DNA of 64,000 nt from Candidatus Omnitrophota bacterium (GTDB lineage Bacteria > Omnitrophota > Gorgyraeia > Duberdicusellales > 4484-171): assembly GCA_024231025.1 (NCBI GenBank), contig JAAEQW010000150.1, positions 239-64,238 on the forward strand, in the 5' to 3' direction. The notes under the pieces are model-generated. The model ran no database searches. It worked only from the letters and a program-made list of their open reading frames with translations, and was not told the origin of the DNA. The translations under genes were made by a program, and so were the position numbers. This document shows positions 2,013 to 51,898 of this stretch, one piece after another. Position 1 is the first letter of the stretch, and every line of letters begins with the position of its first letter.

Positions 2013-2582
2013 ATGGCAACAAAGTCAAAGCGCAAGCAATATTTGATTGATAGTAATTTTCAAATTAAATTTATTTTAAAATTTTGCCTAGTAGTTGTTC
2101 TCTCTTCTTTACTAGTTGTTGGATTGCTTTTGTTTTTAGCAAAAGATTCAACCACTGTAGCTATTGAAAATACTCAAGTTTTGGTTAAAAACACAGCTGA
2201 TTTTATTTTACCACTTACGATAAGTGCAGTATTGATTGGAATGCTATTTTCCGGAGGTGTGGTTTTAATTTTGACACTGTTTACTTCTCATAAAATTTCT
2301 GGCCCGCTATACAGGTTAAAAAACGAAGTGGATAATTTGACGAAAGGTGATTTTAAAAGAAATTTTTATATTCGTGGCGATGATCAACTACAGAATTTCT
2401 CTCAGAGCCTGGATCAGATGTGTAACTCATTACGCGATAAGCACTTAGCGTTAAGAAATAAGTATCAGTATCTAAAAGATTATCTAGAGGATAAGCAATT
2501 TTCTCTTTCCGATGAAAATAAAGAGGAAGCAGCCAAGGCTTTAAATGACTTAGGAGAGGAATTATCTGGTTTTAAGCTTTAA
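2013..2582 (+). CDS. membrane protein with two TM segments and a HAMP domain, no output domain
   Basis: Two hydrophobic helices are followed by a HAMP-like GPLYRLKNEVDNLTKGDF segment and a coiled coil. It is translationally coupled to its neighbours. Confidence 0.45.
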   Translation: MATKSKRKQYLIDSNFQIKFILKFCLVVVLSSLLVVGLLLFLAKDSTTVAIENTQVLVKNTADFILPLTISAVLIGMLFSGGVVLILTLFTSHKISGPLYRLKNEVDNLTKGDFKRNFYIRGDDQLQNFSQSLDQMCNSLRDKHLALRNKYQYLKDYLEDKQFSLSDENKEEAAKALNDLGEELSGFKL

Positions 2583-14783: not shown

Positions 14784-14829
14784 GAGCAGTCATTGATAAT
14801 TAGATTAGTAATGGATTGAGCCGCTAGCT
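14784..14829. repeat. 46-bp perfect direct repeat, copy 2; runs into the intact tRNA-Lys
   Basis: Identical to 14627-14672. Confidence 0.8.
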
Positions 14830-14893
14830 CAGTTGGCAGAGCACCGCCCTTTTAAGGCGGGTGTCCCGGGTTCGAGCCTCGGGCGGCTCACCA
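14818..14893 (+). tRNA. tRNA-Lys (anticodon TTT), CCA encoded
   Basis: Manual fold: 7-bp acceptor GAGCCGC/GCGGCTC, anticodon stem CCGCC/GGCGG, loop CTTTTAA, T-loop TTCGAGC. Confidence 0.85.
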
Positions 14894-14898
14894 TTTAA

Positions 14899-14980
14899 GC
14901 GGATGTGGCGGAATTGGCAGACGCGCTAGACTTAGGATCTAGTCTTTTACGAGGTGGGAGTTCAACTCTCCCCATCCGCA
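14899..14980 (+). tRNA. tRNA-Leu (anticodon TAG), type II with long variable arm, no encoded CCA
   Basis: Acceptor GCGGATG/CATCCGC, anticodon stem CTAGA/TCTAG, loop CTTAGGA. Confidence 0.85.
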
Positions 14981-15046
14981 TTTGAATTTTGAATCGGTTG
15001 TTTAGCAATTCATAATTCACAATTGATAATTCATAATTGAATATTC

Positions 15047-15123
15047 GCGGGCGTAGCTCAATCGGCTAGAGCGTCACGTTGCCAACGTGAAGGTTAGGGG
15101 TTCGATTCCCCCCGCCCGCTCCA
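15047..15123 (+). tRNA. tRNA-Gly (anticodon GCC), CCA encoded
   Basis: Acceptor GCGGGCG/CGCCCGC, anticodon stem TCACG/CGTGA, loop TTGCCAA, T-loop TTCGATT. Confidence 0.85.
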
Positions 15124-38636: not shown

Positions 38637-39821
38637 ATGTTTACCAATATTGAAGACATTATCAGTGATTTCAAGCAGGGAAGGCCGGTTATTGTTGTTG
38701 ATGACGAAGGCCGTGAAAATGAAGGCGATTTGGTTGTCGCTGCTCAATTTGCTACTCCAGAAGTAATTAATTTTATGATCAAAGAGGCACGAGGGCTAGT
38801 TTGCGTACCTCTTAGGAGTGAGCGTATTCGTCAACTTGATTTGGGTCCGATGCATCAACACAACCAGGATCCGTTTAAAACTGCTTGGCGAATATCAGTC
38901 GATGGAGCGAGCGGCATAACTACTGGAATTTCCGCGTTTGATCGAGCACGAACAATCCAAATTTTAATTGATCCTCAAAGCAGTCCGACAGATTTAAGCA
39001 GACCAGGGCACTCATTTCCTTTAGAGGCTAAGGATGGCGGAGTATTGGTGCGTGCCGGTCACACTGAGTCGGCGGTTGATTTGGCCAAGTTGGCTGGCTT
39101 AAACCCATCCGGTGTTATCTGTGAAATAATTAAGGAAGATGGATCAATGGCCAGGCTTGTTGATCTAATTGAATTTTCTAAAAAACATAATTTAAAAATT
39201 TGCACAATTGCTTCGTTAATTGAATATAGAAGAAAGAAAGAAAAATTGATAAATCTTATTGAAAAAGTTAAACTCCCATCAAAGCATGGGGAGTTTGATC
39301 TTTATCTGTATGAATCAGTGCTAGATGGCAGCGAACATATTGCTTTGGTGAGCGGAAAGATTAACGATGAACCAATTTTTGTAAGAGTGCATTCCGAATG
39401 TCTTACCGGTGATGTGTTTTCTTCTCGTCGTTGTGATTGTGGATCGCAGCTTGAAAATGCGATGGAAACGATCGGAAAAAATGGCGGTGCGCTTCTTTAT
39501 ATGCGTCAGGAAGGAAGAGGAATTGGGCTTAAAAATAAAATGAGGGCCTATTCTTTGCAGGAGAAAGGTGCCGATACAGTTGAGGCGAACGAAATGCTTG
39601 GATTTGCGCCGGATTTACGTGATTACGGTATTGGCGCGCAGATGCTAGTTGATTTAGGCGTAAAAAAAATAAAGTTACTTACCAACAATCCTAAGAAGAT
39701 TATTGGACTTGAAGGGTATGGACTTGAAATTACAGAGCGCATTCCGGTTAAAATAAAAGCATGTGACAGCAATCGTCGCTATCTCGAAACAAAAAAAGAT
39801 AAAATGAATCATATGCTATGA
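38637..39821 (+). CDS. ribBA: bifunctional 3,4-dihydroxy-2-butanone-4-phosphate synthase / GTP cyclohydrolase II
   Basis: DDEGRENEGDL (RibB) and CDCGSQ...RQEGRGIG (RibA) motifs. Confidence 0.85.
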   Translation: MFTNIEDIISDFKQGRPVIVVDDEGRENEGDLVVAAQFATPEVINFMIKEARGLVCVPLRSERIRQLDLGPMHQHNQDPFKTAWRISVDGASGITTGISAFDRARTIQILIDPQSSPTDLSRPGHSFPLEAKDGGVLVRAGHTESAVDLAKLAGLNPSGVICEIIKEDGSMARLVDLIEFSKKHNLKICTIASLIEYRRKKEKLINLIEKVKLPSKHGEFDLYLYESVLDGSEHIALVSGKINDEPIFVRVHSECLTGDVFSSRRCDCGSQLENAMETIGKNGGALLYMRQEGRGIGLKNKMRAYSLQEKGADTVEANEMLGFAPDLRDYGIGAQMLVDLGVKKIKLLTNNPKKIIGLEGYGLEITERIPVKIKACDSNRRYLETKKDKMNHML

Positions 39822-39997
39822 AATATAAATTTGCAGTACAAGAAATAACCAATAAACAAGATGCAAGAAACAAACAAATCTCAATATTCAATACCCAATA
39901 ACCAATAAATTTGGTTATTTGAGCTTGGTTATTGATTATTATTTGGTTATTGTAACTTGTTTCTTGTTTCTTTAACGAAATGCATACAGGAGGTATT

Positions 39998-40456
39998 ATG
40001 AAAGAGATAAAAGGATCGTTCGCAGGAAAAGGGCAAAGAATAATTATAGCAATTTCAAGATTTAACGAATTTATCAGCAATCAGCTTCTTGTTGGATGTA
40101 TTGATGCTTTAAAAAAATCTGGCGTAAAAGACGACGATATAACTGTTGTCTGGGCTCCAGGCTCATTTGAGATCCCGCAATTATTAACCAAGATCGATGA
40201 GAAAAAATATGATGCCGCAATTGCATTGGGCGCGGTTATCAGAGGCGAAACGCCTCATTTTGATTATGTAGCTGCTGAGGTGTCAAAAGGCGTGGCAAAA
40301 ATTTCTTTAGATAAGAAGTTTCCAATTATTTTTGGTGTGATTACTGCTGATACTGTTGAGCAGGCAATCGAGCGTGCCGGCACAAAACACGGCAACAAGG
40401 GTAGAGATGCAGCTTTGGCTGCTCTAGAAATAGCAAATATTTATTCGCAACTTTAA
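39998..40456 (+). CDS. ribH: 6,7-dimethyl-8-ribityllumazine synthase
   Basis: GGAGG RBS; IAISRFNEFI...VWAPGSFEIP motifs. Confidence 0.85.
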   Translation: MKEIKGSFAGKGQRIIIAISRFNEFISNQLLVGCIDALKKSGVKDDDITVVWAPGSFEIPQLLTKIDEKKYDAAIALGAVIRGETPHFDYVAAEVSKGVAKISLDKKFPIIFGVITADTVEQAIERAGTKHGNKGRDAALAALEIANIYSQL

Positions 40457-40464
40457 ATCTGTAT

Positions 40465-40911
40465 ATGAGATTACGTTCAAAAGCGAGAGAGGTTTCTTTG
40501 CATCTTCTTTATCAAGTAGAAATCACCAAGGGTGATTTTGCTTCGATTTTTCAAAAATATATCAAAAATGACCCACAACGCCAAGAAGTCGAGGATTTTT
40601 CGCACTCAATTTTCGGTGGAGTGGAGGATAATTTAAGCGCAATTGATTCAGTAATCAAAAAACATGTAAAAAATTGGGAAATTGGCAGGATGGCAATCAT
40701 TGATAGAAATATCTTACGTATTGCTTGCTTTGAGTTGCTTTATTTAGATGAAGTGCCGCCTAAGGTTTCGATTAATGAGGCGATTGAGCTTGCTAAGCGT
40801 TTTGGTGATGTTGACTCACCGCGTTTTGTGAATGGCATCTTAGATAAAATATATAAAACGGAAAGAAAGGATAAAGAAGACAATGTTCGAGAATGCGACA
40901 AACAAGTGTGA
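40465..40911 (+). CDS. nusB: transcription antitermination factor NusB
   Basis: NusB-like 148-aa all-helical protein placed after ribH, as in many bacteria. Confidence 0.7.
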   Translation: MRLRSKAREVSLHLLYQVEITKGDFASIFQKYIKNDPQRQEVEDFSHSIFGGVEDNLSAIDSVIKKHVKNWEIGRMAIIDRNILRIACFELLYLDEVPPKVSINEAIELAKRFGDVDSPRFVNGILDKIYKTERKDKEDNVRECDKQV

Positions 40912-41719
40912 CCTTCACATCCATTCAACATTCTCTGATAGCGATCAAACTTTAGAAAGCATTTTTCTATCTGCCAAAGAAAACGACCTCAGCTGCATAT
41001 CTATAACTGATCACGATACTACCAGCGGAATAAAATGTGCACGCTCACTCAGCAGACGAGTTGGCATCGAATTAATTGATGGCATTGAAATCAGCGCTCA
41101 TAAAGATGAGACTGAAATTCATATTTTGGGCTATTTTATTGATAGCGAAAATAGAAAATTTCAAAATGCGCTAGAAGATGTAAGAGAATTACGAAAAAAG
41201 CGCTTAATCGCGATGGTCAAGCGCCTAAGCGCTTTAGGGCTGGCAGTTGATTGCGATGAAATTTTAGAAGGGATTGGCGATGCTATTGCCACAAGGCTTC
41301 ATCTTGGATTATACTTAGTTAAGAAAAAAATTGTTGGTAATCTCTGGGAAGCTTTTAAAAAATATCTTTCCTGCGGAAAGCCGGCTTATATTGGGCGTTT
41401 TAAATTTTCAGTAAAAGAGGCGATTGAGTTAATCAAAGATAGCGGTGGCCTAGCTTTTATTGCGCATCCGCGTTATATTACGGATCGAGCGTGGATAAAA
41501 GAATTTGCTAATTACGGTGCAGATGGCTTAGAGGTGGTTTATCCGTGTCTTTCGGCTGCCAAAATGGCATCTTTTTCTGATATTGCGGACGAATTGGGAC
41601 TCATTAAAAGTGGCGGTTCTGACGCTCACGGAACGTATAAAGAGTATACCAAAGTTGGAGGAGTAAGCATTCCTTACAGCTGGGTTTTGAAGATGAAGGA
41701 ACGTCTTTGCTTGGTATGA
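40883..41719 (+). CDS. PHP-domain metal-dependent phosphoesterase (TrpH/YciV-like)
   Basis: CDLHIHSTFSDSD and ITDHDT PHP motifs. Confidence 0.7.
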   Translation: MFENATNKCDLHIHSTFSDSDQTLESIFLSAKENDLSCISITDHDTTSGIKCARSLSRRVGIELIDGIEISAHKDETEIHILGYFIDSENRKFQNALEDVRELRKKRLIAMVKRLSALGLAVDCDEILEGIGDAIATRLHLGLYLVKKKIVGNLWEAFKKYLSCGKPAYIGRFKFSVKEAIELIKDSGGLAFIAHPRYITDRAWIKEFANYGADGLEVVYPCLSAAKMASFSDIADELGLIKSGGSDAHGTYKEYTKVGGVSIPYSWVLKMKERLCLV

Positions 41720-42789
41720 ATAAAGATTTAATTTTTCTAAAAAAAGCGTTAGAGCTTGCTCAACAGGCCGAAGGATTAACTTCGCCCAATCCTTTAGTTG
41801 GGGCAGTGATTGTTAAAAAAGGTAAAGTAGTTTCTAAGGGCTATCATCGCCGTGCCGGTTTGCCTCACGCTGAAGTTGAAGCAATCAAAAAGGCAAAAGC
41901 CGATATAAAAGGGGCAACTCTTTATATAGGCTTAGAACCATGTTGCCATTTTGGCAAAACTCCGCCCTGCGTTGATAAGATTATTGCAAGTGGAATAAAA
42001 AGAGTTGTTATCGCAACGCTTGATCCTAATCCGATAGTTAGTGGCAAATCGGTTAAAAAATTAAAAAAAGCAGGAATCCAGGTAAGTGTTGGTTTGCATC
42101 AAGCCTGGGCTCAGCAAATTAACGAAGTGTTTTTTAAAAACATGGCTCAACGCTTACCGTTTGTTGTGGCAAAAGCTGCTCAGAGCCTGGATGGAAAAAC
42201 AGCAACCAAAAATAAAAAGTCTAAATGGATAACATCTGATGCGATGCGTCTTTGCGCAAAAAAATTACGCGATAAGTACGATGCGGTGTTAGTAGGAATT
42301 AATACGGTATGTGCCGATAACCCTTCACTTGATGGGGCGAATAAGACGCCGTTTAAGGTTGTGATTGATCCGCATTTGCGAATCTCTTCTGATTGTAAAT
42401 TGATTAAGAATAATCCGCAACGGTTAATAATTTTTACTTCTAAGTGCAATGAGCACAAGGCTTGGAAAATGCCCGATCGGGTAAACATATTTTTCTTAGA
42501 AGGTAAAAACGATAAATTTGCCTTAAAAGATGTTTTAAAAAAGCTTTATAAGGTTGGGATAAGGTCAGTATTCGTTGAGGGTGGCTCGCAGACCTTAGGT
42601 GAGTTTTTTGACAGTAAGCTAGTCGATAAAGTGTATTTTTTTATTGCGCCGAAGATTATCGGTGGTAAAGATGCGCTTGTTTCAGTGGGCGGCGAGGGAG
42701 CGTCATCGCCAAATAGTGCGCTAAATATAAGAGATATGCAGTCAACGCCAGTTGACAACGGCATTCTAATTTCAGGATATCCCACGTGA
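41707..42789 (+). CDS. ribD: bifunctional riboflavin biosynthesis deaminase/reductase
   Basis: HAEVEAI...PCCHFGKTPPC CMP/dCMP-type deaminase zinc motif plus a RibG reductase domain. Confidence 0.85.
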   Translation: MLGMNKDLIFLKKALELAQQAEGLTSPNPLVGAVIVKKGKVVSKGYHRRAGLPHAEVEAIKKAKADIKGATLYIGLEPCCHFGKTPPCVDKIIASGIKRVVIATLDPNPIVSGKSVKKLKKAGIQVSVGLHQAWAQQINEVFFKNMAQRLPFVVAKAAQSLDGKTATKNKKSKWITSDAMRLCAKKLRDKYDAVLVGINTVCADNPSLDGANKTPFKVVIDPHLRISSDCKLIKNNPQRLIIFTSKCNEHKAWKMPDRVNIFFLEGKNDKFALKDVLKKLYKVGIRSVFVEGGSQTLGEFFDSKLVDKVYFFIAPKIIGGKDALVSVGGEGASSPNSALNIRDMQSTPVDNGILISGYPT

Positions 42790-43093: not shown

Positions 43094-43148
43094 ATGTTTT
43101 AAAGGTGGCAATTGCAGTGATTTTGCTGCACAATTGAGGAGGTTTTCG

Positions 43149-46100
43149 ATGATACTATTTTTACAAAAGAGAAAAGCGTCGGTTCCATTCAAAGTTACAG
43201 TGTTTTTAGCAATGGGAATTTTTCTGCTGGGCACCTTTATGATGCAGACCAATAAAGTTCCTAAAGCATATGCTTCCGCCTTGCCGTATATGGCGGCACC
43301 GACCGAACTTATTGATACAACCGCAAATTTTAACCCGGTAGTTTTGCGCGGGATAAAATTTGATACCAACAATCCCTTTAAATTCAATTTTATTCTTGAT
43401 GAAGGCGATACTGCCCTTAGCGACGGCGAACTGAAAAAGGAAGTAGAAAAGATCGCTCGCCAATTTCTTGCGGCGATAACTGTTCCCGAAGAGGATTTAT
43501 GGGTTAACCTTTCTCCATTGGAAAAAGATAGAATTATTTCTGATGAGCTAAGCGTAACCGATATTGGACGTGACCTTTTAGGTGAAGATTACGTTCTAAA
43601 ACAATTAACTTCGTCTTTAACTTATCCGGAAAGTCCGCTTGGTAAAGAGTATTGGAAAAAGATTTACACTCGGACCCAAGAAATGTATGGCACAACTGAC
43701 GTGCCAATTAATACCTTTAACAAAGTTTGGATTACTCCTAAGCATGCGGTAATTTACGAAAATGCCCAAGGCGCATATATTGGTGAGAGCCATCTAAAGG
43801 TAATGTTGGAACAGGATTACCTTGCCCAAGAACAAAACATCGCAGGGGCACAGCGTGATGTGCCCTCTGAAAAACAAATCAATAATATTTCCGCCCAAAT
43901 AACCAAAGAAGTAATTTTGCCGGTAATCGAGAACGAAGTAAATTACGGGAAAAGCTTCTCGCATTTGCGTCAAATTTATCATTCGGTGCTTTTAGCCTCG
44001 TGGTTTAAAAAGAAACTAAAACAGACTATTCTTAATGATATCTACGTTGATAAGAAAAAGATTGCCGGAGTTGACACCAGCGACCCCCAGATTAAGGAAA
44101 AAGTATACAACCAATATTTAGAAGCTTACAAAAAAGGTGTCTATAATTATATTCGCCGTGATTCTGATTTTACCACAAAAAGAAAAGTTAATCGTCGTTA
44201 CTATTCTGGCGGAACTGATCTGGTGGTTGGCCCAACAACTACGACTAAGTCTGGTACCGATCCTTTGGCTCCAGGTGTTGGCGGGGCTTCAAAGGGTGAA
44301 GTAAGTGAGGCTGGAGTTACAACCGAAGGCATTGACAATAAACCTGGGCCGGATATGGCCGCTGCAGCGATTCCGCATGGTCGGACTAATAAGGGGATAT
44401 CAGGCGCAATCGAAGGTAATACTGTTACTCGTCAAAAGGCAAATGGAAGCTACGCAAAAGAGGTTTTTGATGCTGAGAAAGCGCCTAAAGACAGTTCGGT
44501 AATAACTAAGGCCGACGTGCGTGATGTTCCACAGTTAGCCGGATCAATTACCGAATTAATTCATAACTACAGAGACATAATTACTTTCGACCTTGATAGC
44601 GCAGGAAGAATGGTCAATGTTCAACTCCCCACGGACCTCACAGATAATCTTCGTATACTTGATTTAGCGCGTGAACTTTCAGTTGTTCAACCTGATCCGC
44701 AAGTGCGCCGCATGGCTTTTCATTTAGCTGCGGCAATTCAACGTGCGCGCGGAAAACTTTCTCCAAATGTTAGAAATGTATCGTTACTCCAGCCATTTAC
44801 CGATGGCGTTTTAAGAGGTATTCCGGCAGATAATTTACGCTGCGGTGGGGCGATGGAGCAAGCTGCTCTTGGGCGAGCAGCAGATAAAGCTAACGCGGTT
44901 ATTGCGGCTGAAATTGCCATGTCTGAGCTGATCTATTCTGGGCTTTTGGATTTATTTGATTTTGTTGGTCATGTATATCTTGGTGATGCTTTTGCTGGCC
45001 GTGATGCTTCAACTCCTACGCAGCTTGATCATCTTCAAGCTAAATTGTCAGAAATATTTGCTTTAGATAAGACGAAGGCTCTAATTGCAGCGGCGTCCGA
45101 TGAACTGTCGGTTGATGGTTACGAGGAGAAAATTTGGGCGAAAATGCCTCTTGTTGAACGCGAGAGTTCAGGGATGATTGATAAGGCGCGGCGAGAAGCA
45201 GAAATGCAGAAAATATTCGGCATACTTACCTTAGCCGCTGAAGCAGGAATTACCCATTTCGATATTGATTTTTCAACTCTGGCGGATCAAGTTCTAATGG
45301 AAGCCCTTTACCGAGGTGCGCACACTGATGATAATCCTAATGGTTTTAGTCCAAGCATGAAGATGCTAATCGATAAGATCAAGAGCTCTCCATCAATGGA
45401 AGTGGCGGTTGCATGGGTTAGAGATAAGGGTGAGGTTTCTGATGATAAGCTTTGGGAGTTGTATAGTCCCAAGCGTCAGGCAGCATCTGAGAAAATTCAG
45501 GTATTTAATGCCAAATTTAGCGCAAAGGCAATCGTCCACCAAAGAATAGAAGAGGCGAAAGCAATAAGGGCCGGATATTTACCGGAAGGGTTTCGTGCCC
45601 TTTCTGGTGTTGAAGATGCACATACTGATTTAAAGTTTCTTGAGAATAAACCGAGTGAGCCGGAATCAGTTGTTGCATTTTTGCTTATGTTGCGTCGTGA
45701 GTTATTAGAAGCGAATAAACAGTTTAAAGCAGATTACGGTTACGATTTACCTGAGTTAACCGCAATTAAATGGAGTCCGAAAACCGGAACTTCACATGGT
45801 ACCGCGGGGATAGAGGCCAATATCGGTGTTTTTGCGTTGGCGGAAAGGTATCTTGCCTTGCCGCAAGTGAAAGAAATCCTCGGCGGTGAGTTTGTCCTAA
45901 TAAGGGGTCAGCATGGAGCCTCTAAATGTACTACCGATCAGTACGCAGATATGGGTCGAAATGCTGAGGATATTCACTTTGCGACTGGAATAGCTAACAA
46001 ATTTTCCGGAACAATGGCCGAAGAATTTAACATAATGACCGATACTGTGGGGGATTTACTGCAGTTGCTTTTAAAGCCTGATCGAGCGAATATTACCGAT

Positions 46101-49100
46101 CGCCTTAACGCGTATTTAGAGGTTATTGGTAAGGATGCGGATTGGCTGATGGATTACGTTACGCTGCCTGGAGTTGAAGCCAAAATCAAAAGATTTCGTT
46201 CGGCTGAATTTGGCGGGAAAAATGATGCCCAAACAAAGTTTTTCAATATCTTAGCTAAGGAGGGCATAACTTCATATACTCTCGAAGGCCGCAGGAGACT
46301 TACCCATCTTATTCTTACCGACCCTGAGGAGGGTGTTCCTAGTGATGCAAGAAGTAAACTGAAAGATTTAGTAAAGCATGTTTACAGACCACTTTTACCC
46401 TACTTTCTTAGTATGCCGCAAGAATTACGGGATCCGGTTATGAACGCGGTGCAGGCCTGGATGGGAGACGCAATAAATGAGTTAGGTATTGCAGATAGTT
46501 TTGATAAGCTTGTACCATATTTACCTCAAGAACCTTTGGTTTTGCGCCCGATTCCTGCCGATTTTGTTGCGGAAGCTCAAGAAGCAGTGCAGCAAAGCTT
46601 GCCGCTGATTGAACAAATCGACAATGGATTTGCGCAAGCGAGAGAGGCTTTTGATGGTGGCGAATATCAGCTAGCATTTACCAGAGTCGATAAGGCAATA
46701 GAACTTTTGATGAGACCTGAAAAATTCGACGCAAAAGATGATCCGCTAACCGGCGTCAGTAACCCTAATGAAATTTTAAGTCTGTTAAATAGTTTAGGAT
46801 CAAAGCGCCAATTATATCCTCGTCAAGAAGACCTTCAGGGTTTTCTTCACGCAGGCATAAATGGGCTGGATTTGATTAATGGCTTAAGAAAGCTAAATGG
46901 TTTCAAGCTAATAATCGAAGAAGTCGACCCTCAAGACGTGCCGCTGATTGAACAAATCGATGGCTTGTTTGTCGAAGCGAAAAAAGCTCTTGCGAAGGGT
47001 GAGGATCAGTTAGCATATACCAAGGTCGAGGAGGCAACAACACTTTTGACACGGCCTCTCGATTTCGACACAAGTGATGATCCACTAACCGGCCTCAGTA
47101 ATCCCGATGAGGTTTTAAAACTATTAAATAGCTTAAAGCTTCAACGGTCTCGTCGTCAAAGCGCCCTTTGGCGCTTGCTTGGCCAACGTTTAAATGGATT
47201 GGATTTAATTAACGGGTTAAGGATGGCAATTGGTTTTGGGGTAATAACCGAAGAAGTCGATCCTCAAGACCTGCCGCTGACTAATAAACAAATAGACAGT
47301 TTTTTTGATAGAGCCGAAGAACATTCTAAACATGGAAGAGATTCCTATGCACTTAAAGAAATTGATAAGGCAATAGAACTTTTGAAATGGCCTGAAAAAT
47401 TTGATGCAAAGGGTAACCCGCTAGTCGGCATCAGTAACCCCGATGGAGTTCAACACCTATTAAGTGCGATAGAGACAGGAGGGTACACATTATCTTTTAG
47501 TGAGGAAGCTCTTAAACTTCTTCTTGATGAAGGTGCAAGCGGATTAGAATTAGTTAATGGTTTGAGAGAGATAGATAGGCTCGATCCAATAGCAAAAAAA
47601 GCTGACCCTCAAGATCTGCCGCTGATTGAACAAATCGACAATGGATTTACCGAAGCGAGAGAAGCTTTTGATAGTGGCGAATATCAGCTAGCATTTACCA
47701 GAGTCGATAAGGTAGCAGAACTTTTGAGACGGCCTTACGATTTTGACGTAAGTAATGATCCACTAACCGGCCTCAGTAACCCTAATGAAGTTTTGATGCT
47801 GTTAAATGATTTAGAATTAAATGTTGGATTATCGCATCGTCAAAAAGCGCTTAAGGATTTTATTGGTCAAGGTAGAAACGGATTGGACTTAATTAATTGC
47901 CTAAGAATGGCAGTTGGTTATGGGGTAATAATCGCGAAAGCTGGCAGCGCTGCTGCCAACGGGTCGGTTGTTTTAGAGAAGAAAAATAAGGTTGCAATTA
48001 ATGGCGGCGGCAGAATCGGCATGTTGAGTTTGCGCGTGTGGATTATGAAAAAAATGCACGGAGAGCCAACCGATCTTGATGTTGTAGCGATGAATGATTT
48101 GCAGTCACCCCAGCAGCTAGCTTACAAACTTAAGTACGATTCTAATCATGGAGAGCTTAAGGATGTTGGAATCGATGTGGTCGAAGAGGGAAATGATAAC
48201 TTTTTGGTTATCAATGCTGAAGGAATCAATAATCATAGAATTCAATTATTTTCAGAAAGAGATCCGACACAGCTGCCATGGGGACAACTAGGTATTGGTC
48301 AAGTGTGGGAGTGTACCGGAATATTTAGAGATAAAGAAGCGGCTGATTTGCATCGTCAAGCGGGAGCCAAAAAAGTTATTGTTAGCGCTCCGGGCAAAGG
48401 GCTTCCAACTATAGTTTTCGGAGTGAACCAAGGTATTTATGATCCAGCGAAGCATGACATAGTTTCGAACGCATCGTGCACAACCAATGATCTTGCTCCG
48501 GTGATTAAGGTCTTAAATGATACACTTGGAGTTCAGTCGGCAATGATGAATACAACGCATGCTACAACTAATGATCAGAAAGTAGGTGACGCTCCGCACA
48601 GCGATCCTTATCGATCAAGAGGCGCTATCGGTGCGATGATAATACCTACCATCACAGGGGCAGCTAAAACTACTGGCAAAGTAATACCTGAATTGGATGG
48701 AAAAATAGATGGAGCTTCACTTCGTATTCCTACTAAAACTGTTTCAGCGACGACGATAACAATCAATGTGAAAAAAGACACAACAGTAGCAGAAGTTAAC
48801 GCAATTTTAAAGGAAGCATCAGAGACTGAGGGATTAAAAGGTATTCTTGCTTATACCGATGAGAAAAAAGTTGGGGTGGATTTTCTTACTGATCCACATT
48901 CATCAACGGTTGCCGGAGACTTCACTAAAGTTGTTGTCGGTACGATGGTGCAAGTACTTTCTTGGTACGATAATGAATGGGGTTTTGCCAATCGCATGGT
49001 TGATCTTGGTGAGCATATGGCAGATGCCGATTTCGCCTTTGCTGAGAAAGAAATTGTGCAGGAGACAGCGCATGATACATTTGTAAAAAATGAATTAAAG

Positions 49101-50723
49101 TATCTTCGTCGGAAAGGTGGAGAAATTGAACAGGCGGCTGAGGCAGCGGACCTATCGCGTATTGCTACGGCGTTGAATCGTAGCGAAAAGGATCTCAAAA
49201 ACGCGGCGCTATATGTTGCTAAGTTTATTGATATCTTAACCGTAGAGGGCAGGCTGGCAATTGGTGAGGGATTACCTTTCTTGCACGCGCGCAAAGGTAT
49301 ATTTGATCTTTTTTATAGATGGAATCTTTCAGAATCAGCAATTACAACTGGTATTCAGCTCTTTCTTCATAAGGAAATCACATCCGAGCAGCGCGGTCGA
49401 GCGATATTTCACGATGCTTTGCATGTTGTTGTTCCAAAGTCGCTGCGCCACCCCACAGAAGAAGAAATAGAAAATGGTGCGGTAGATCCTTTCCCGACAG
49501 ATCAGGACATTAAAGATCACCTTGTTGAACTTTCTAAAAATTTAGGAGAAAAACCACCAACCAGCACCGGCGCTTACGACATGGCGGCTGCGCAATCAAG
49601 CCAGCTGAATTTGGAAGAAACTACTTGTCAAGGTGGCAATTGGAAGAGGCATCTTGAGAACAGAAAAGAGGCTAAAGAAAAAATAGACCGTTTTGAAAAA
49701 AAGTTCAGAAATGGAATACCTGAAGGAGCATGGGCGGGTATTGCGGTGCAAAATGAGTATGTTGCGATGGCAGGCGCAGCATGGAAAGATTCTGCTCTTG
49801 AAGCTGGTGTCCAATCAATATTCTTTAGAGTGGAAGAAAATCAGGAAAATGTTGTGAGGTATTTGAAGCGGCGGATTCAAGAAGCAGTAGATGCTGGTGC
49901 AACTTGGGCCAATATTGCCCATTCAATACATCGAGCAATGGGTAAAGGATTAACCGATCTTGATGCCAATATCTTAATGCATGCCATACTTAATGATGGT
50001 CGTTTAATGCCTTGGTACACTGTTGAAGTATCTGACGGAGGTGATGTAAACGGAAGAACCACTCAACAAGAAATAGATGACGCGGTAAATATTGGTTTAG
50101 CCGGTATTACTGCAGAGCAGCTATTGGGCGTTCCGATTACTATTGAACCAACCAGAGACATTAGCACTCCAGCTGAAGGTAAAGCAGTTAATCTTGTTGA
50201 GTTGGATACAGAAAAGATTAAAAAAAGAGTTGATATGCTACGTTTAGCTTTAATTGTAAAATACGGTGATATTGCCAGGCGTTTTAATGTTGGTTATGGG
50301 GCTAGTATCGCCAGAAAAAACGCGCGAGCAATCTTTAGCATTCCTGGTGTCAACAATGGTTTAGCTGGTGGAGAAAGTCAAAATGAAGATGTATTCATGG
50401 AAGTAATAGAGAAGGCTCAGCAGGGAGTTGAAGACTTGGCTCTTTATCAGGCAGAGGATATTGGCGAGATTAATGAAACAGATTCTTCCGATGAGCAAGA
50501 GGATTATAATGCAGCAGAGAGATCGTTTGGTGGAATTAATTTAGATGGTGAAATTGACCTGCGCGGTGATGGACAATTTAACATCGACCTTTATGATATT
50601 CCTTTTGACATTAAGACTTTTAAAGGGTTGGCACCTTTGGTAAGCAAGATGAAGCGTGATCAGGACCCGAAGAGTTTCTTTGCGTCAAAGCAACCGCAAC
50701 AAGAACTCTCTTACGCGCATTAA
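43149..50723 (+). CDS. giant exported multidomain protein (2,524 aa): signal peptide, N-domain, G/T/P linker, unknown region with weak class-II-aldolase-like segment, 4 x ~112-aa repeats, GAPDH homologue, linker, triosephosphate-isomerase homologue, acidic tail
   Basis: Uninterrupted ORF; GAGGAGG sits 6 nt before the ATG at 43149. The N-terminal h-region is VTVFLAMGIFLLGTFMM with a predicted cleavage site AYA|SA. GAPDH motifs: KVAINGGGRIG, KYDSNHGE, AGAKKVIVSAPGK, SNASCTTNDLAP, TTHATT, IIPTITGAAK, SWYDNEWGF. TPI motifs: GNWKRH, AGATWANIAHSIHR, IEP, GYGAS-x21-GGES. Terminators flank both ends. Confidence 0.8.
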   Translation: MILFLQKRKASVPFKVTVFLAMGIFLLGTFMMQTNKVPKAYASALPYMAAPTELIDTTANFNPVVLRGIKFDTNNPFKFNFILDEGDTALSDGELKKEVEKIARQFLAAITVPEEDLWVNLSPLEKDRIISDELSVTDIGRDLLGEDYVLKQLTSSLTYPESPLGKEYWKKIYTRTQEMYGTTDVPINTFNKVWITPKHAVIYENAQGAYIGESHLKVMLEQDYLAQEQNIAGAQRDVPSEKQINNISAQITKEVILPVIENEVNYGKSFSHLRQIYHSVLLASWFKKKLKQTILNDIYVDKKKIAGVDTSDPQIKEKVYNQYLEAYKKGVYNYIRRDSDFTTKRKVNRRYYSGGTDLVVGPTTTTKSGTDPLAPGVGGASKGEVSEAGVTTEGIDNKPGPDMAAAAIPHGRTNKGISGAIEGNTVTRQKANGSYAKEVFDAEKAPKDSSVITKADVRDVPQLAGSITELIHNYRDIITFDLDSAGRMVNVQLPTDLTDNLRILDLARELSVVQPDPQVRRMAFHLAAAIQRARGKLSPNVRNVSLLQPFTDGVLRGIPADNLRCGGAMEQAALGRAADKANAVIAAEIAMSELIYSGLLDLFDFVGHVYLGDAFAGRDASTPTQLDHLQAKLSEIFALDKTKALIAAASDELSVDGYEEKIWAKMPLVERESSGMIDKARREAEMQKIFGILTLAAEAGITHFDIDFSTLADQVLMEALYRGAHTDDNPNGFSPSMKMLIDKIKSSPSMEVAVAWVRDKGEVSDDKLWELYSPKRQAASEKIQVFNAKFSAKAIVHQRIEEAKAIRAGYLPEGFRALSGVEDAHTDLKFLENKPSEPESVVAFLLMLRRELLEANKQFKADYGYDLPELTAIKWSPKTGTSHGTAGIEANIGVFALAERYLALPQVKEILGGEFVLIRGQHGASKCTTDQYADMGRNAEDIHFATGIANKFSGTMAEEFNIMTDTVGDLLQLLLKPDRANITDRLNAYLEVIGKDADWLMDYVTLPGVEAKIKRFRSAEFGGKNDAQTKFFNILAKEGITSYTLEGRRRLTHLILTDPEEGVPSDARSKLKDLVKHVYRPLLPYFLSMPQELRDPVMNAVQAWMGDAINELGIADSFDKLVPYLPQEPLVLRPIPADFVAEAQEAVQQSLPLIEQIDNGFAQAREAFDGGEYQLAFTRVDKAIELLMRPEKFDAKDDPLTGVSNPNEILSLLNSLGSKRQLYPRQEDLQGFLHAGINGLDLINGLRKLNGFKLIIEEVDPQDVPLIEQIDGLFVEAKKALAKGEDQLAYTKVEEATTLLTRPLDFDTSDDPLTGLSNPDEVLKLLNSLKLQRSRRQSALWRLLGQRLNGLDLINGLRMAIGFGVITEEVDPQDLPLTNKQIDSFFDRAEEHSKHGRDSYALKEIDKAIELLKWPEKFDAKGNPLVGISNPDGVQHLLSAIETGGYTLSFSEEALKLLLDEGASGLELVNGLREIDRLDPIAKKADPQDLPLIEQIDNGFTEAREAFDSGEYQLAFTRVDKVAELLRRPYDFDVSNDPLTGLSNPNEVLMLLNDLELNVGLSHRQKALKDFIGQGRNGLDLINCLRMAVGYGVIIAKAGSAAANGSVVLEKKNKVAINGGGRIGMLSLRVWIMKKMHGEPTDLDVVAMNDLQSPQQLAYKLKYDSNHGELKDVGIDVVEEGNDNFLVINAEGINNHRIQLFSERDPTQLPWGQLGIGQVWECTGIFRDKEAADLHRQAGAKKVIVSAPGKGLPTIVFGVNQGIYDPAKHDIVSNASCTTNDLAPVIKVLNDTLGVQSAMMNTTHATTNDQKVGDAPHSDPYRSRGAIGAMIIPTITGAAKTTGKVIPELDGKIDGASLRIPTKTVSATTITINVKKDTTVAEVNAILKEASETEGLKGILAYTDEKKVGVDFLTDPHSSTVAGDFTKVVVGTMVQVLSWYDNEWGFANRMVDLGEHMADADFAFAEKEIVQETAHDTFVKNELKYLRRKGGEIEQAAEAADLSRIATALNRSEKDLKNAALYVAKFIDILTVEGRLAIGEGLPFLHARKGIFDLFYRWNLSESAITTGIQLFLHKEITSEQRGRAIFHDALHVVVPKSLRHPTEEEIENGAVDPFPTDQDIKDHLVELSKNLGEKPPTSTGAYDMAAAQSSQLNLEETTCQGGNWKRHLENRKEAKEKIDRFEKKFRNGIPEGAWAGIAVQNEYVAMAGAAWKDSALEAGVQSIFFRVEENQENVVRYLKRRIQEAVDAGATWANIAHSIHRAMGKGLTDLDANILMHAILNDGRLMPWYTVEVSDGGDVNGRTTQQEIDDAVNIGLAGITAEQLLGVPITIEPTRDISTPAEGKAVNLVELDTEKIKKRVDMLRLALIVKYGDIARRFNVGYGASIARKNARAIFSIPGVNNGLAGGESQNEDVFMEVIEKAQQGVEDLALYQAEDIGEINETDSSDEQEDYNAAERSFGGINLDGEIDLRGDGQFNIDLYDIPFDIKTFKGLAPLVSKMKRDQDPKSFFASKQPQQELSYAH

Positions 50724-50932: not shown

Positions 50933-51250
50933 ATGCCTAATCATATTTACGCCATTGCTATAATCAAAAATAATATCATAAAGGGCCGACAGCCATCGGC
51001 CCCTACGGATAAAATTAATCAAAAACAATTATTATCATCATTCGTCGCCGGTTTTAAATCCGTGGCAGCAAAACGTATCAACACCTTACGTAATACACCA
51101 GGAAATCCTATTTGGCAACGTAATTATTATGACCATATTATTCGTGATGATAAATCTTTGCAGAAAATTCGCGAATACATTACCGGCAATCCGGTTATGT
51201 GGGATACCGACGAAAATAATATTATTAATCACAATAGGAGGCAGATATGA
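50933..51250 (+). mobile_element. truncated REP-associated tyrosine transposase (RAYT / IS200-like Y1 transposase) remnant, C-terminal ~2/3 only
   Basis: Carries the C-terminal block NPIWQRNYYDHIIRDDKSLQKIREYITGNPVMW. A degenerate HuH site reads HIYAIAI where a histidine-x-histidine pair would be expected. The N-terminal beta-strand region is missing. A REP-like hairpin lies inside its 5' end and another lies upstream. Confidence 0.5.
50982..51006. repeat. REP-like hairpin, reverse-complement copy (AGGGCCGACAGCCATCGGCCCCTAC)
   Basis: Exact reverse complement of 50810-50834. It is embedded in the 5' end of the RAYT-remnant ORF, encoding KGRQPSAPT. Confidence 0.6.
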
Positions 51251-51435: not shown

Positions 51436-51550
51436 GCGGATATTCAGTATTTACATATTTTCAGTTGCATTGACAATCTGTAAAAACAAAATTGCACCTA
51501 AAATCTAACAGTTGCAAAAATGCTATATTTGTGAGTATAATACTACTGCT

Positions 51551-51898
51551 ATGGAAAAACAAAGAAAACTAATAAGGCTTGATACAGATGATTTCCTAGA
51601 AATAAGATTGCTGGATGATTCCGTTAAAAGTAAGGGCAGCAGTAAGAATATTACTTCGATGGGGATATGTTTTTCGTCTGAAAACAATTGGCAAAAGGAT
51701 CAAATTCTTTTGATTAATTATTTTCTTCCCGATGAATTAGATTCAGTTAAACTGAAAGTTGTGGTTGTTTGGTCTGAATTCATTGATCCGGAAAGTGGTT
51801 ATTTTTGCGGAGGCGAGATAACCGAAATTGAAGAAGGCAAAGAAGACCAATTCGCACACTATTACCTGCAACAATTGAAAGATAGATTTTGTAAATAG
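51551..51898 (+). CDS. PilZ-like c-di-GMP-binding domain protein (tentative)
   Basis: QRKLIR (RxxxR-like) and NITSMG (D/NxSxxG-like) motifs spaced as in PilZ domains. Confidence 0.35.
   Translation: MEKQRKLIRLDTDDFLEIRLLDDSVKSKGSSKNITSMGICFSSENNWQKDQILLINYFLPDELDSVKLKVVVVWSEFIDPESGYFCGGEITEIEEGKEDQFAHYYLQQLKDRFCK

Follow-up and report, generated by a model that had tools for sequence, protein, structure and literature searches.

A type I GAPDH domain with retained functional residues within a putatively exported giant protein of a Candidatus Omnitrophota bacterium

The stretch of Candidatus Omnitrophota DNA analysed here (64,000 nucleotides, referred to as the window) contains a single giant-protein gene, the features of which are collected in Table 1. 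The open reading frame that encloses the GAPDH segment extends from 43134 to 50723 on the forward strand, its actual start being the ATG at 43149. The same ATG is the annotated start of P0001, a protein of 2,524 aa from an NCBI Candidatus Omnitrophica MAG (locus tag GY858_04105) that is 100% identical to the product. While the G+C content of the gene is higher, its GC3 of 0.35 falls inside the range of the other window genes, which rules out horizontal transfer or a chimeric assembly as source of the elevated G+C and attributes it to amino-acid composition instead. The GC3 of the GAPDH segment (0.34) equals the genome background, and P0241, a protein from another source, unites the same aldolase-like, TIM-like and GAPDH modules. 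With a uniform, genome-typical GC3 and the same module set in P0241, the giant gene is native and no assembly artefact. A weak PilZ-like ORF is located at 51512-51898 of the window and has no detectable counterpart at the 80 best related genomic loci. Neither RTX repeats nor associated transporter genes were seen within the window.

Table 1. Features of the giant-protein gene and its product, with positions in the window.
Feature	Position	Strand	Basis
Ribosome-binding site GAGGAGG	43136..43142	+	read from sequence; ATG start 6 nt downstream
Giant-protein gene, single	43149..50723 (incl. stop)	+	ORF list and translation; product 2,524 aa
Predicted Sec-type signal peptide (aa 1-42)	43149..43274	+	n-region QKRKA, hydrophobic core, predicted cleavage after A-Y-A
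Conserved family N-domain (aa 45-358)	43281..44222	+	alignment to family members
Class II (metal-dependent) aldolase-like TIM barrel with large insertions (aa 445-1150)	44481..46598	+	predicted fold
QLDH, aldolase-like domain	45021-45038	+	motif
GTSHG, aldolase-like domain	45786-45800	+	motif
GQHGAS, aldolase-like domain	45906-45923	+	motif
Four tandem repeats, ~113-117 aa each (aa 1135-1612)	46551..47984	+	self-alignment
Type I GAPDH domain (aa 1613-1960)	47985..49025	+	Pfam, NCBIfam, structure match, residue alignment
NGGGRIG, GAPDH glycine loop	48000-48020	+	translation
Asp32 in AMNDL, GAPDH	48087-48101	+	alignment
Cys149, catalytic, GAPDH	48477-48479 (codon TGC)	+	alignment (NASCTTND)
Asp153, GAPDH	48489-48491 (codon GAT)	+	alignment
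His176, GAPDH	48558-48560 (codon CAT)	+	alignment (TTHATT)
Arg195 in YRSRG, GAPDH	48609-48623	+	alignment
Thr208-Gly209 in PTITGAAK, GAPDH	48645-48668	+	alignment
Arg231 in LRIPT, GAPDH	48720-48734	+	alignment
Asn313 in WYDNEWGF, GAPDH	48963-48986	+	alignment
Linker module (aa 1965-2160)	49041..49628	+	phmmer matches P0005 (3.4e-16), P0006 (7.3e-13); no Pfam match
Triose-phosphate-isomerase-like (TIM-like) domain	49635..50414	+	PF00121 35.4 bits vs cut-off 20.1; alignment with P0004, P0241 and canonical TIMs
Family C-terminal motif, variant form GGINLDGEIDLRGDGQFNIDLYDIPFDIKTFKGLAPLV	50529..50642	+	family motif comparison, phmmer

Both halves of the GAPDH domain are recognised by Pfam, Gp_dh_N (PF00044) with 80.1 bits (1.7e-22; cut-off 31.7) over profile positions 2-101 of 101 and Gp_dh_C (PF02800) with 165.1 bits (1.2e-48; cut-off 24.4) over positions 1-158 of 158. 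The NCBIfam model TIGR01534 is covered over its whole length (positions 1-330 of 330) with 352.9 bits (1.7e-105), narrowly short of the NCBI curated cut-off of 367.2. Among solved structures, 3gnq matches best (2.7e-91, ~50% identity across the domain), and the nearest stand-alone GAPDHs in a search of 5.8 billion proteins, all from other phyla, are 53% identical. By these scores the match is far beyond chance. All motifs quoted in the original prediction are present in the forward-strand translation of 47985-49010, i.e. KVAINGGGRIG, KYDSNHGE, ERDPTQLPW, AGAKKVIVSAPGK, IVSNASCTTNDLAP, TTHATT, IIPTITGAAK..GKVIPELDGK and SWYDNEWGF, and the GAPDH homologue that it had placed inside a larger protein is indeed a full type I domain within the 2,524-aa gene product. 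Hereby, the catalytic nucleophile Cys149 and the general base His176, both of which had been expected, could be aligned and their codons located. The phosphate-site residues Thr179, Arg195, Thr208-Gly209 and Arg231 align with the canonical ones, and a one-residue insertion lies between Arg197 and Ile203. The glycine loop fits GxGxxG as anticipated (GGGRIG), and the NAD contacts are kept along with it (Arg10, Ile11, Asp32, Arg77, Thr96, Phe99, Ser119, Asn180 and Asn313), including Asp32, which we take to be the mark of NAD preference in type I GAPDH. Going by the alignments, every known catalytic, phosphate-binding and direct NAD-binding residue is retained.

The embedded domain departs from the 120 nearest stand-alone GAPDHs at six positions that show no variation among the latter: F8G, R13M, C153D, Y178T, R194Y and S/T207I. 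An altered NAD site, as originally proposed, is found insofar as positions 8 and 13, in the GxGxxG loop or next to it, carry residues present in none of the 120 stand-alone enzymes (G and M compared to F and R); the proposal does not hold for the direct NAD ligands, which are intact. Two of the six substitutions fall within the S-loop or at its beginning, and this loop forms the tetramer core. To judge from the positions affected, the substitutions could impair cofactor affinity or oligomerisation of the domain. The reported change of Cys153 to Asp is real, the codon being GAT, and Cys153 is absent from all seven embedded GAPDH domains examined. The giant protein as a whole contains 6 Cys in 2,524 aa, i.e. 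0.24% compared to 1.32% in the 46 other window ORFs, an about five-fold deficit (binomial P = 7e-9), and the median cysteine content of 120 relatives is 0.11%. Since Cys153 and the other extra cysteines have been lost as they have family-wide, their loss points to adaptation to a new context. That Cys149 was spared despite this depletion, and that GAPDH is always accompanied by an aldolase in the relatives (see below), argues against a mere structural relic, in agreement with the original prediction.

The segment upstream of the repeats adopts a class II aldolase TIM-barrel fold in the predicted structure. Pfam model PF01116 gave no match to it with E allowed up to 10; the corresponding, homologous region of P0241 exceeds the gathering score (28.8 vs 25.5 bits), and P0002 scores 25.2 bits. 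An exhaustive HMMER search with the region recovered three homologues, and QLDH, GTSHG and GQHGAS align with the D-H, GT.HG and HGAS motifs of these homologues and of AgaY, so that they are candidates for the Asp-His pair and the two further metal-binding His (equivalents of AgaY His83, His180 and His208), the match to solved enzymes being weak (E 0.23). The medium-confidence model and the weak sequence signals together suggest an aldolase identity for this segment. The TIM-like domain is closest to the TIM domains of P0004 (3.5e-43) and P0241 (6.6e-41) and keeps the catalytic residues in GNWK (Asn10/Lys12), AHS (His95) and IEPT (Glu165). Canonical Glu97 is missing, with HSIHR in place of HSERR, and the loop-6 lid is altered to PTRDISTPAEG in place of PVWAIGTG, both variants also being found in P0004 and P0241.

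The terminal modules relate the protein to a family, defined in this analysis, whose members share a Sec signal peptide, an N-domain of ~315 aa, swappable enzyme cargo and a short motif at the C-terminus. The N-domain is 46-56% identical to that of 25 diverse members, has 46 invariant columns and contains the motifs WVNLSPYEKDRI, TFNKVWI.P and RKYFSGG. The C-terminal motif (aa 2461-2498) reads GGINLDG...IPFDIKTFKGL, a divergent form of GGI(D/N)L ... PFD ... F(E/K)GF, and is matched by phmmer to the C-termini of P0012, P0067, P0015 and P0017; GGI[DNS][LFM] occurs within the last 110 aa in 100 of 120 relatives. Leader, N-domain, C-terminal motif and cysteine depletion all agree with the family pattern, and by these sequence features the giant protein is a member of a very large, almost Omnitrophota-restricted family. 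Species-representative genomes contain at least 584 loci of this family, almost all of which carry the label Omnitrophota, and a single genome has several paralogues. Its cargo by Pfam includes kinases, UbiB, methyltransferases, MutS, DEAD helicases and response regulators; enolase, PGK, phosphoglycerate mutase, PGI, isocitrate lyase and malate synthase are found as well. Modules are shuffled between paralogues of the same MAG, and the linker is common to two such giants (P0005 and P0006; GY858 locus tags). The four repeats, each of which ends in G(L/S)GL(D/E)L(I/V)N(G/C)LR, are probably helical spacers and have no match in Pfam, among 120 relatives or at 80 related loci. Searches of Pfam, NCBIfam and PDB sequences gave no credible match to N-domain, repeats, linker or C-terminal motif, and nothing at the 80 best related genomic loci corresponded to the GAPDH, TIM or aldolase-like domains, the repeats or the C-terminus of the giant protein.

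A hydropathy scan (Kyte-Doolittle >1.6) identifies aa 9-34 as the only hydrophobic segment of the giant protein. The leader ends in KAYA, followed after the predicted cleavage site by SA, directly ahead of the conserved domain, and a comparable leader ending in (A/S)-Y-A is present in 115 of 120 relatives. A Tat (folded-protein) signal was rejected, the leader sequences showing no consistent twin-arginine motif. Positive charges lie ahead of the hydrophobic segment, which predicts an N-in, C-out orientation. The only window ORFs that are equally cysteine-poor are signal peptidase I, the gene of which is present in the window, HtrA, and one unannotated truncated ORF (29-1288); signal peptidase I and HtrA are extracytoplasmic proteins. 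Export, which had been presumed from the outset, is thus supported by the predicted signal peptide and by a cysteine exclusion common to the periplasmic proteins of the window.

GAPDH is a rare cargo in the family: it occurs in five of the 120 top relatives, and the 80 best genomic loci lack it. An embedded giant-protein copy can therefore not, as a rule, be the GAPDH found throughout the phylum. All five other GAPDH-bearing members (P0002, P0003, P0028, P0079 and P0241) also contain an aldolase, and four of these five contain a TIM domain as well. Counted over the top 120 relatives, an aldolase domain is present in 5 of 5 GAPDH-bearers compared to 3 of 115 others, based on Pfam annotations to which the aldolase-like domain of the window protein is added on fold evidence. 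The aldolases are of unrelated types, namely class I (P0003, P0028), class II (P0002, P0241) and DeoC/LacD (P0079), and the occurrence of three unrelated types beside GAPDH argues for selection on the pathway and not on structure. GlpX-type FBPase domains, guessed by eye in P0002 and P0003, were unsupported by Pfam. The embedded GAPDHs of these giants, which are paralogues and not orthologues of the window protein, are 31-43% identical to the window GAPDH, compared to 54% for the stand-alone enzymes. Loss of Cys149 or His176 in other giants, which would have spoken against a functional domain, is seen for His176 in P0241 copy B; both residues are kept in P0002, P0003, P0028, P0079 and P0241 copy A. 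Copy B is also without Arg231, and copy A is without the Rossmann glycine loop. The losses in copy B demonstrate that decay of embedded GAPDHs does occur in the family. The 5.8-billion-protein search with the GAPDH domain returned only stand-alone GAPDHs (<=53%) and no close orthologue, and a metagenome scan with GAPDH-specific peptides returned nothing above 51% identity.

Compared to known systems, the embedded domain resembles type I GAPDH (GapA; PF00044 + PF02800; TIGR01534) in its two-domain architecture, 50-54% identity, SCTTN nucleophile, His176 and both phosphate sites. That enzyme, however, is a cytosolic protein of ~335 aa, whereas here the domain constitutes residues 1613-1960 of a signal-peptide-bearing precursor of 2,524 aa. 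In Gram-positive pathogens, surface "moonlighting" GAPDH is the ordinary stand-alone enzyme, which has no signal peptide and binds host proteins. It likewise represents a normally cytoplasmic GAPDH beyond the cytoplasmic membrane, but in the present case export appears to be gene-encoded and the domain is fused to pathway neighbours. Constant end modules with swappable cargo are known from Rhs, CdiA and LXG toxins and from LapA-like type I secretion adhesins. The conserved N-terminal module, variable payload, many paralogues and inter-paralogue shuffling of the present family may be regarded as analogous, although it has no sequence or fold similarity to the trafficking domains of those proteins and carries ordinary metabolic and regulatory enzymes instead of toxins. 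TPI-GAPDH fusions with mitochondrial targeting signals, described for stramenopiles and other eukaryotes (PMC3527533), also combine both enzymes in one chain behind an N-terminal targeting signal for a non-cytosolic compartment. They are eukaryotic two-domain proteins with TPI first, directed to a compartment that contains NAD+, unlike the present protein, which is bacterial and has a Sec signal, an extra aldolase-like domain, repeats and the family end modules. Omnitrophota giants with signal peptides ("Archaeovorins" and others) have been described by West-Roberts et al. 2023 (10.1101/2023.11.21.568195) and in a 2026 preprint (10.64898/2026.06.07.730766), with FBPase, PGM and FBP aldolase domains predicted to face outward and a small PilZ-like gene that is often located downstream. 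These giants are 10,000-147,000 aa long and have numerous transmembrane helices. The present protein shares with them the phylum, a signal peptide, sugar-metabolism domains and the weak PilZ-like ORF in the window; with 2,524 aa and one hydrophobic segment it lies outside the size and helix range of the Archaeovorin type. Term searches of both preprint texts revealed no GAPDH in giants, N-domain, C-terminal motif or aldolase-GAPDH-TIM module. Metabolic domains in exported Omnitrophota giants are already noted in the preprints; the present family and its three-enzyme module are not.

Taken as a whole, the observations are best explained by a catalytically competent, exported, NAD-type phosphorylating GAPDH that is one of three fused triose-phosphate enzymes, an explanation to which we give a somewhat better than even chance. 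Domain identities, conservation of functional residues, family membership and export signatures are directly supported by the data; from these we infer that the enzymes are active, that the three domains cooperate and, at the furthest remove, where the protein acts and in which direction flux runs. Class II aldolase-like domain, GAPDH and TIM-like domain follow each other in this order in one 2,524-aa chain. The precursor would be translocated by Sec and then cleaved after A-Y-A (aa 42), with N-domain and C-terminal motif handling anchoring or further targeting, and the three domains would interconvert fructose-1,6-bisphosphate, triose phosphates and 1,3-bisphosphoglycerate beyond the cytoplasm of the producer. 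Omnitrophota are regarded as epibionts, parasites or predators, and a likely site would be wherever cytosolic NAD+, phosphate and sugar phosphates of a host or prey become reachable. NAD+, ADP and sugar phosphates are not known from the bacterial periplasm or from outside cells, which makes this site speculative. A wider reading, according to which signal peptide, N-domain and C-terminal GGIDL...FxGF mark a phylum-specific Omnitrophota export system that puts blocks of normally cytoplasmic metabolism outside the cell (aldolase, GAPDH and TIM in the present protein, the further enzymes from enolase to malate synthase elsewhere), is tentative and in our estimate rather doubtful. Under this wider reading, the exported enzymes could work in the host or prey cytoplasm or in the contact zone, with the parasite processing or harvesting central carbon metabolites of the host remotely.

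With no obvious NAD+ supply outside the cytoplasm, the fold might instead be used without catalysis, as might those of the aldolase-like and TIM-like domains, either as a binding module comparable to the surface GAPDHs of Gram-positive pathogens or as an oligomerising node (GAPDH tetramer, TIM/aldolase dimers) that cross-links the giants into an extracellular coat. A coat or adhesin role has already been proposed for Omnitrophota giant proteins, the otherwise invariant positions 8, 13, 178 and 194 near the cofactor loop and the S-loop are altered, and the GAPDH copies of P0241 are degenerate (A in the glycine loop, B in His176 and Arg231). We nevertheless consider this use unlikely, as catalytic, phosphate-binding and direct NAD-contact residues are all retained at ~53% identity, the catalytic cysteine persists in an otherwise cysteine-purged protein, and the three unrelated aldolase folds beside GAPDH are explained by selection for a reaction sequence and not for a shape. 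Alternatively, the hydrophobic segment could be an uncleaved anchor, or be ignored altogether, so that the enzymes form a membrane-tethered metabolon that faces the cytoplasm, has the usual access to NAD+ and phosphate, and serves the cell's own glycolysis/gluconeogenesis. Each cargo type of the family requires cytoplasmic cofactors, GAPDH is assigned by KO profile in 176/176 complete Omnitrophota genomes, cytoplasm-facing giants have been discussed (10.64898/2026.06.07.730766), and West-Roberts et al. warn that extracellular calls for sugar-metabolism domains could be topology errors (10.1101/2023.11.21.568195). Such a metabolon is still quite unlikely, since the charges predict the opposite orientation, the A-Y-A signal-peptidase motif is conserved in most of the family and the cysteine content resembles that of the periplasmic and not the cytoplasmic proteins of the window; moreover, the rarity of GAPDH cargo and the fact that the nearest GAPDHs are stand-alone enzymes from other phyla speak against a housekeeping copy.

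Finally, the domain could be recently captured cargo, i.e. a stand-alone gap gene that was fused by domain shuffling and now drifts without function while still looking intact. This is very unlikely. The closer relationship to stand-alone than to other embedded GAPDHs, the shuffling of modules among paralogues of the same MAG and the lack of an orthologue that would demonstrate constraint are compatible with it, but the GC3 of the segment does not stand out from the genome, and the nearest known sequence is merely 53% identical, so that the capture was not recent. Drift after such divergence would not have spared all functional residues, and the loss of Cys153 and of the other extra cysteines follows the pattern of the family.

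GAPDH is a textbook cytoplasmic enzyme. If the domain is indeed a catalytically competent, exported GAPDH, the giant protein would represent a clear case of a bacterium that moves part of glycolysis/gluconeogenesis outside its own cytoplasm, and part of the sugar metabolism of this Candidatus Omnitrophota bacterium may run there. The analysis also brings to light, for an uncultured phylum that is probably parasitic, a very large, modular and previously undescribed family of proteins, on which N-domain, C-terminal motif and cleavage site provide experimental handles. For metabolic reconstruction, caution is advised, as pathway calls based on KO or Pfam can be met by domains within exported giants. 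Should the reading as a phylum-specific export system be true, the "glycolysis" of Omnitrophota in published genome-based accounts may partly count exported enzymes.

A single open reading frame encloses the GAPDH domain. Its true start is the ATG at window position 43149, with GAGGAGG 6 nt before it, and the 2,524-residue product is 100% identical to GY858_04105 (here P0001), annotated as hypothetical in an NCBI Candidatus Omnitrophica MAG. Translation of the GAPDH segment reproduces every motif listed in the original prediction; both the GAPDH assignment and its coordinates proved real, with bounds right to within a few codons. The segment matches Pfam Gp_dh_N (1.7e-22) and Gp_dh_C (1.2e-48), and NCBIfam TIGR01534 (type I GAPDH) over all 330 profile positions with 352.9 bits, just below the cut-off of 367.2. 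The top solved structure is a Burkholderia GAPDH (3gnq; 2.7e-91, ~50% identity), followed by >100 further GAPDH entries. The domain belongs to the type I GAPDH superfamily on all sequence criteria, the strict NCBIfam cut-off being the one exception.

Features of P0001, of related giant proteins and of the surrounding window
Feature	Residues (aa)	Window position (strand)	Remark
Giant-gene ORF		43134-50723 (+)	
Signal-peptide-like leader	1-42		
Conserved N-domain	45-358		
Poorly conserved linker	359-444		
Class II aldolase-like barrel	445-1150		
Four tandem repeats	1135-1612	46551-47984 (+)	~113-117 aa each; between aldolase-like domain and GAPDH
GAPDH	1613-1960	47985-49010 (+)	
Linker module	1965-2160	49041-49628 (+)	common to two paralogues of the same MAG
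TIM-like domain	2163-2422		Pfam 35.4 bits, cut-off 20.1
C-terminal motif	2461-2498		
Linker module in P0005	942-1069; 1668-1760		GY858_02680
Linker module in P0006	1508-1665		GY858_09770
GAPDH-like domains of P0241	3590-3975; 4200-4595		
GAPDH active-site strand, P0002	~575-585		
GAPDH active-site strand, P0003	~1755-1765		
419-aa ORF		29-1288 (+)	zero cysteine
Three clustered tRNA genes		14818-15123 (+)	Lys-TTT, Leu-TAG, Gly-GCC
ribBA, ribH, ribD		38637-42789 (+)	directly upstream of giant gene
PHP-domain gene		40883-41719	between ribH and ribD
105-aa ORF		50933-51250 (+)	just 3' of giant gene
128-aa ORF		51512-51898 (+)	~800 nt 3' of giant-gene stop

That this domain is probably there for catalysis is supported by three arguments, drawn from its residues, its cysteines and its pathway context. 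All functional residues are intact despite only ~53% identity to any known sequence. Residues were compared by alignment with the 120 nearest GAPDHs in the database (each a stand-alone protein of 332-344 aa, ≤53% identical), with equivalences anchored on universally conserved motifs; a reference sequence served residue orientation only. Both Cys149 and His176 align as predicted, together with the catalytic and phosphate residues Ser148, Thr150, Thr179, Arg195, Thr208-Gly209 and Arg231. On the NAD side GxGxxG, Arg10, Ile11, Asp32 (the residue of NAD preference), Arg77, Thr96, Phe99, Ser119, Asn180 and Asn313 are kept. Six changes fall at positions invariant or near-invariant in the stand-alone enzymes (F8G, R13M, C153D, Y178T, R194Y and S/T207I), none of which is, to our knowledge, a catalytic or substrate ligand. 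Of these, 8 and 13 are part of the dinucleotide loop or adjacent to it, 178 opens the S-loop and 194 is inside it. The altered NAD site originally proposed thus holds for positions 8 and 13, but is modest, since the direct NAD ligands are kept.

With regard to cysteine, the catalytic Cys149 is retained while surplus cysteines are removed: the five embedded GAPDHs counted have exactly two each, compared to four (median) in their stand-alone relatives. All 120 stand-alone relatives have Cys153; no embedded copy does, the residue there being D, A, S, S and S, with S and G in the two copies of P0241, the sixth GAPDH-bearing family member. The remaining embedded GAPDHs have a single cysteine in addition to Cys149, placed 3 or 5 residues before it (C-A-S-C in P0002; C-x4-C in P0003, P0028, P0079 and P0241 copy B), where stand-alone enzymes have Ile, Val or Asn; this pair could be an alternative redox couple protecting or gating the catalytic thiol. 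The window GAPDH lacks the upstream cysteine and has its second one at position 95 (WECTG).

The window GAPDH is the most canonical embedded copy, being 54% identical to stand-alone enzymes compared to 31-43% to other embedded copies; the metagenome collection yielded no orthologue. The GAPDHs of P0028 and P0079 are very divergent, with Cys149 and His176 kept, Asp32 replaced and the S-loop shortened. P0241 (4,828 aa) has two GAPDH-like domains together with isocitrate lyase, TIM, malate synthase and the rare aldolase-like domain of P0001. Its copy A has no Rossmann glycine loop, an HTH_11-matching stretch standing in its place, and copy B has lost Arg231 and carries Leu for His176; degenerate GAPDH copies therefore exist in the family.

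The pathway argument rests on the aldolase-like and TIM-like domains that flank the window GAPDH. Each of the five other GAPDH-bearing members has an aldolase as well. These enzymes fall into three unrelated kinds (class I in P0003 and P0028, class II in P0002 and P0241, DeoC/LacD in P0079), and TIM is also present in four of the five proteins. Among the best 120 relatives, by our count of Pfam annotations, aldolase domains occur in 5/5 GAPDH-bearers, including the aldolase-like domain of P0001 on fold evidence, versus 3/115 others. The same three reactions have repeatedly been built from non-homologous parts, and this co-recruitment of unrelated aldolases with GAPDH points to selection on the reaction sequence.

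The aldolase-like region of P0001 has no Pfam match and no PDB sequence match, and when 1.84 billion representative proteins were searched exhaustively with HMMER, only three homologues emerged. In one of these, P0241, the homologous stretch scores above threshold for the Pfam class II FBP aldolase family. A profile of five aligned sequences matches only the class II aldolase AgaY, weakly (E 0.23), at the GT.HG and HGAS metal-ligand motifs. A word-index protein search with the GAPDH or aldolase-like domain as query missed P0001, which the full-length query retrieved; a negative from this search therefore counts for little when the query is an internal domain of a long protein. The TIM-like domain retains Asn10/Lys12, His95 and Glu165 in alignment; its Glu97 position and loop 6 are non-canonical, a variant shared with P0241 and P0004, another giant protein. 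The tandem repeats, which by eye read as helical spacers, have no Pfam match, and neither 120 relatives nor 80 related loci contain a homologue. The linker separating GAPDH from TIM recurs in P0005 (twice) and P0006 of the same MAG; modules have therefore been shuffled among paralogues within one genome.

Searching with full-length P0001 retrieved >100 proteins of 1,400-4,400 aa that match only its first ~350 residues (38-56% identity), the named ones all from Omnitrophica/Omnitrophota. Conservation is high over the N-domain and collapses beyond it, and a GGI(D/N)L... motif lies within the last 110 residues of 100/120 members. Neither the N-domain nor the C-terminal motif matches Pfam or NCBIfam, and a full-text literature search found no description of the family. 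Scanning one genome per species gave at least 584 loci, with several paralogues per genome; among the matches listed, nearly all lie in Omnitrophota-labelled MAGs, some in MAGs labelled 'uncultured Planctomycetales' and one on a 2.3-kb contig in a Patescibacteria-group bin. The cargo, by precomputed Pfam domains, is extremely diverse, and many members have none. Central-carbon enzymes include FBP aldolases of class I and II, FBP aldolase/phosphatase, FBPase, TIM, GAPDH, PGK, phosphoglycerate mutase, enolase, PGI, isocitrate lyase and malate synthase; other cargo comprises M48 peptidase with UbiB kinase, Ser/Thr kinases, PP2C, HATPase, receiver domains, GNAT, methyltransferases and HEAT repeats.

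Four indirect lines of evidence agree that P0001 is probably exported. Its sole hydrophobic segment (aa 9-34) is preceded by QKRK and followed by K-A-Y-A and then S-A. An equivalent leader occurs in 115/120 relatives (median 40 aa, median 4 K/R in the n-region, strongly hydrophobic core), with (A/S)-Y-A directly before the conserved domain. P0001 has 6 Cys in 2,524 residues (0.24%; family median 0.11%), compared to 1.32% in 46 other window ORFs (binomial P = 7e-9). This is the fourth-lowest content among all window ORFs, below it being only one truncated unannotated ORF and the known extracytoplasmic proteins HtrA and signal peptidase I, the latter a window gene product. By our reading the family leaders lack a consistent twin-arginine motif, which makes Sec transport of the unfolded chain the likely route. 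In P0242 (1,321 aa; 0.23% Cys) a signal peptide directly precedes aldolase-like and TIM domains without the family N-domain; the enzyme module would therefore be exportable without it. The cysteine-free 419-aa ORF starts ...DPFDVTLTSNAGAIIDNNGDAL, is possibly cut by the window start and might belong to a further exported or surface protein.

The giant gene is surrounded by an ordinary chromosome, as annotated: ptsI, aromatic amino-acid genes, cmk, lepA, signal peptidase I, recA, htrA, alaS, his and rib genes and an AddAB-like helicase-nuclease pair. The tRNA genes were found by ARAGORN and confirmed with Rfam. The gene's G+C of 0.43 exceeds that of its flanks, while its GC3 (0.35) is window-typical, which attributes the excess to amino-acid composition and rules out foreign origin as its cause. 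The 105-aa ORF weakly matches an IS200-like Y1 transposase (E 5.4e-4), the alignment being confined to the C-terminal half of the profile; what is left of a transposase may thus lie beside this modular, shuffled gene. The 128-aa ORF matches PilZ (E 6.8e-4) with 20.4 bits, under the cut-off of 22.5, and tblastn found no counterpart at 80 related loci; small pilZ genes usually follow Omnitrophota giant genes (West-Roberts et al. 2023, bioRxiv 10.1101/2023.11.21.568195).

On balance we lean slightly towards P0001 being a Sec-exported modular multi-enzyme, in which the aldolase-like, TIM-like and GAPDH domains would interconvert fructose-1,6-bisphosphate, triose phosphates and 1,3-bisphosphoglycerate outside the producer's cytoplasm. 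Their site of action would most coherently be in, or touching, the cytosol of a host or prey, because an attached, parasitic or predatory lifestyle is proposed for many Omnitrophota (West-Roberts et al. 2023 and other published work) and only a cytoplasm supplies the cofactors of the cargo. The gluconeogenic and glyoxylate-shunt enzymes of other members (FBPase, FBP aldolase/phosphatase, isocitrate lyase, malate synthase) would fit either flux direction. A non-catalytic role of the GAPDH domain, in binding or cross-linking, has the degenerate P0241 copies on one side and the intact active site of the window copy on the other, and we regard it as rather unlikely. Given the leader and the scarcity of cysteine, we consider a housekeeping metabolon facing the cytoplasm unlikely. 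Captured cargo that is drifting appears very improbable.

FBPase, PGM and FBP aldolase domains were predicted to be extracellular in Omnitrophota giants by West-Roberts et al. (2023), who warn of topology errors in those predictions; unlike P0001, their giants are multi-transmembrane and far larger. A 2026 preprint (10.64898/2026.06.07.730766) describes a 147-kaa protein with multi-enzyme metabolic content on the outer face. Neither preprint mentions an embedded GAPDH, the N-domain/C-motif family or a fused aldolase-GAPDH-TIM module, and the context of the GAPDH domain, a giant-protein family and a fused three-enzyme module, is new. The nearest conceptual precedent is the mitochondrion-targeted TPI-GAPDH fusion of stramenopiles (PMC3527533). 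According to the 2026 preprint, KOs for isocitrate lyase and malate synthase occur in 0/176 complete Omnitrophota genomes; in contrast, several members of the present family (P0241, P0068, P0070, P0093) carry Pfam ICL and malate synthase domains. Enzymes embedded in giant proteins may be overlooked, or elsewhere miscounted, by KO-based pathway calls.
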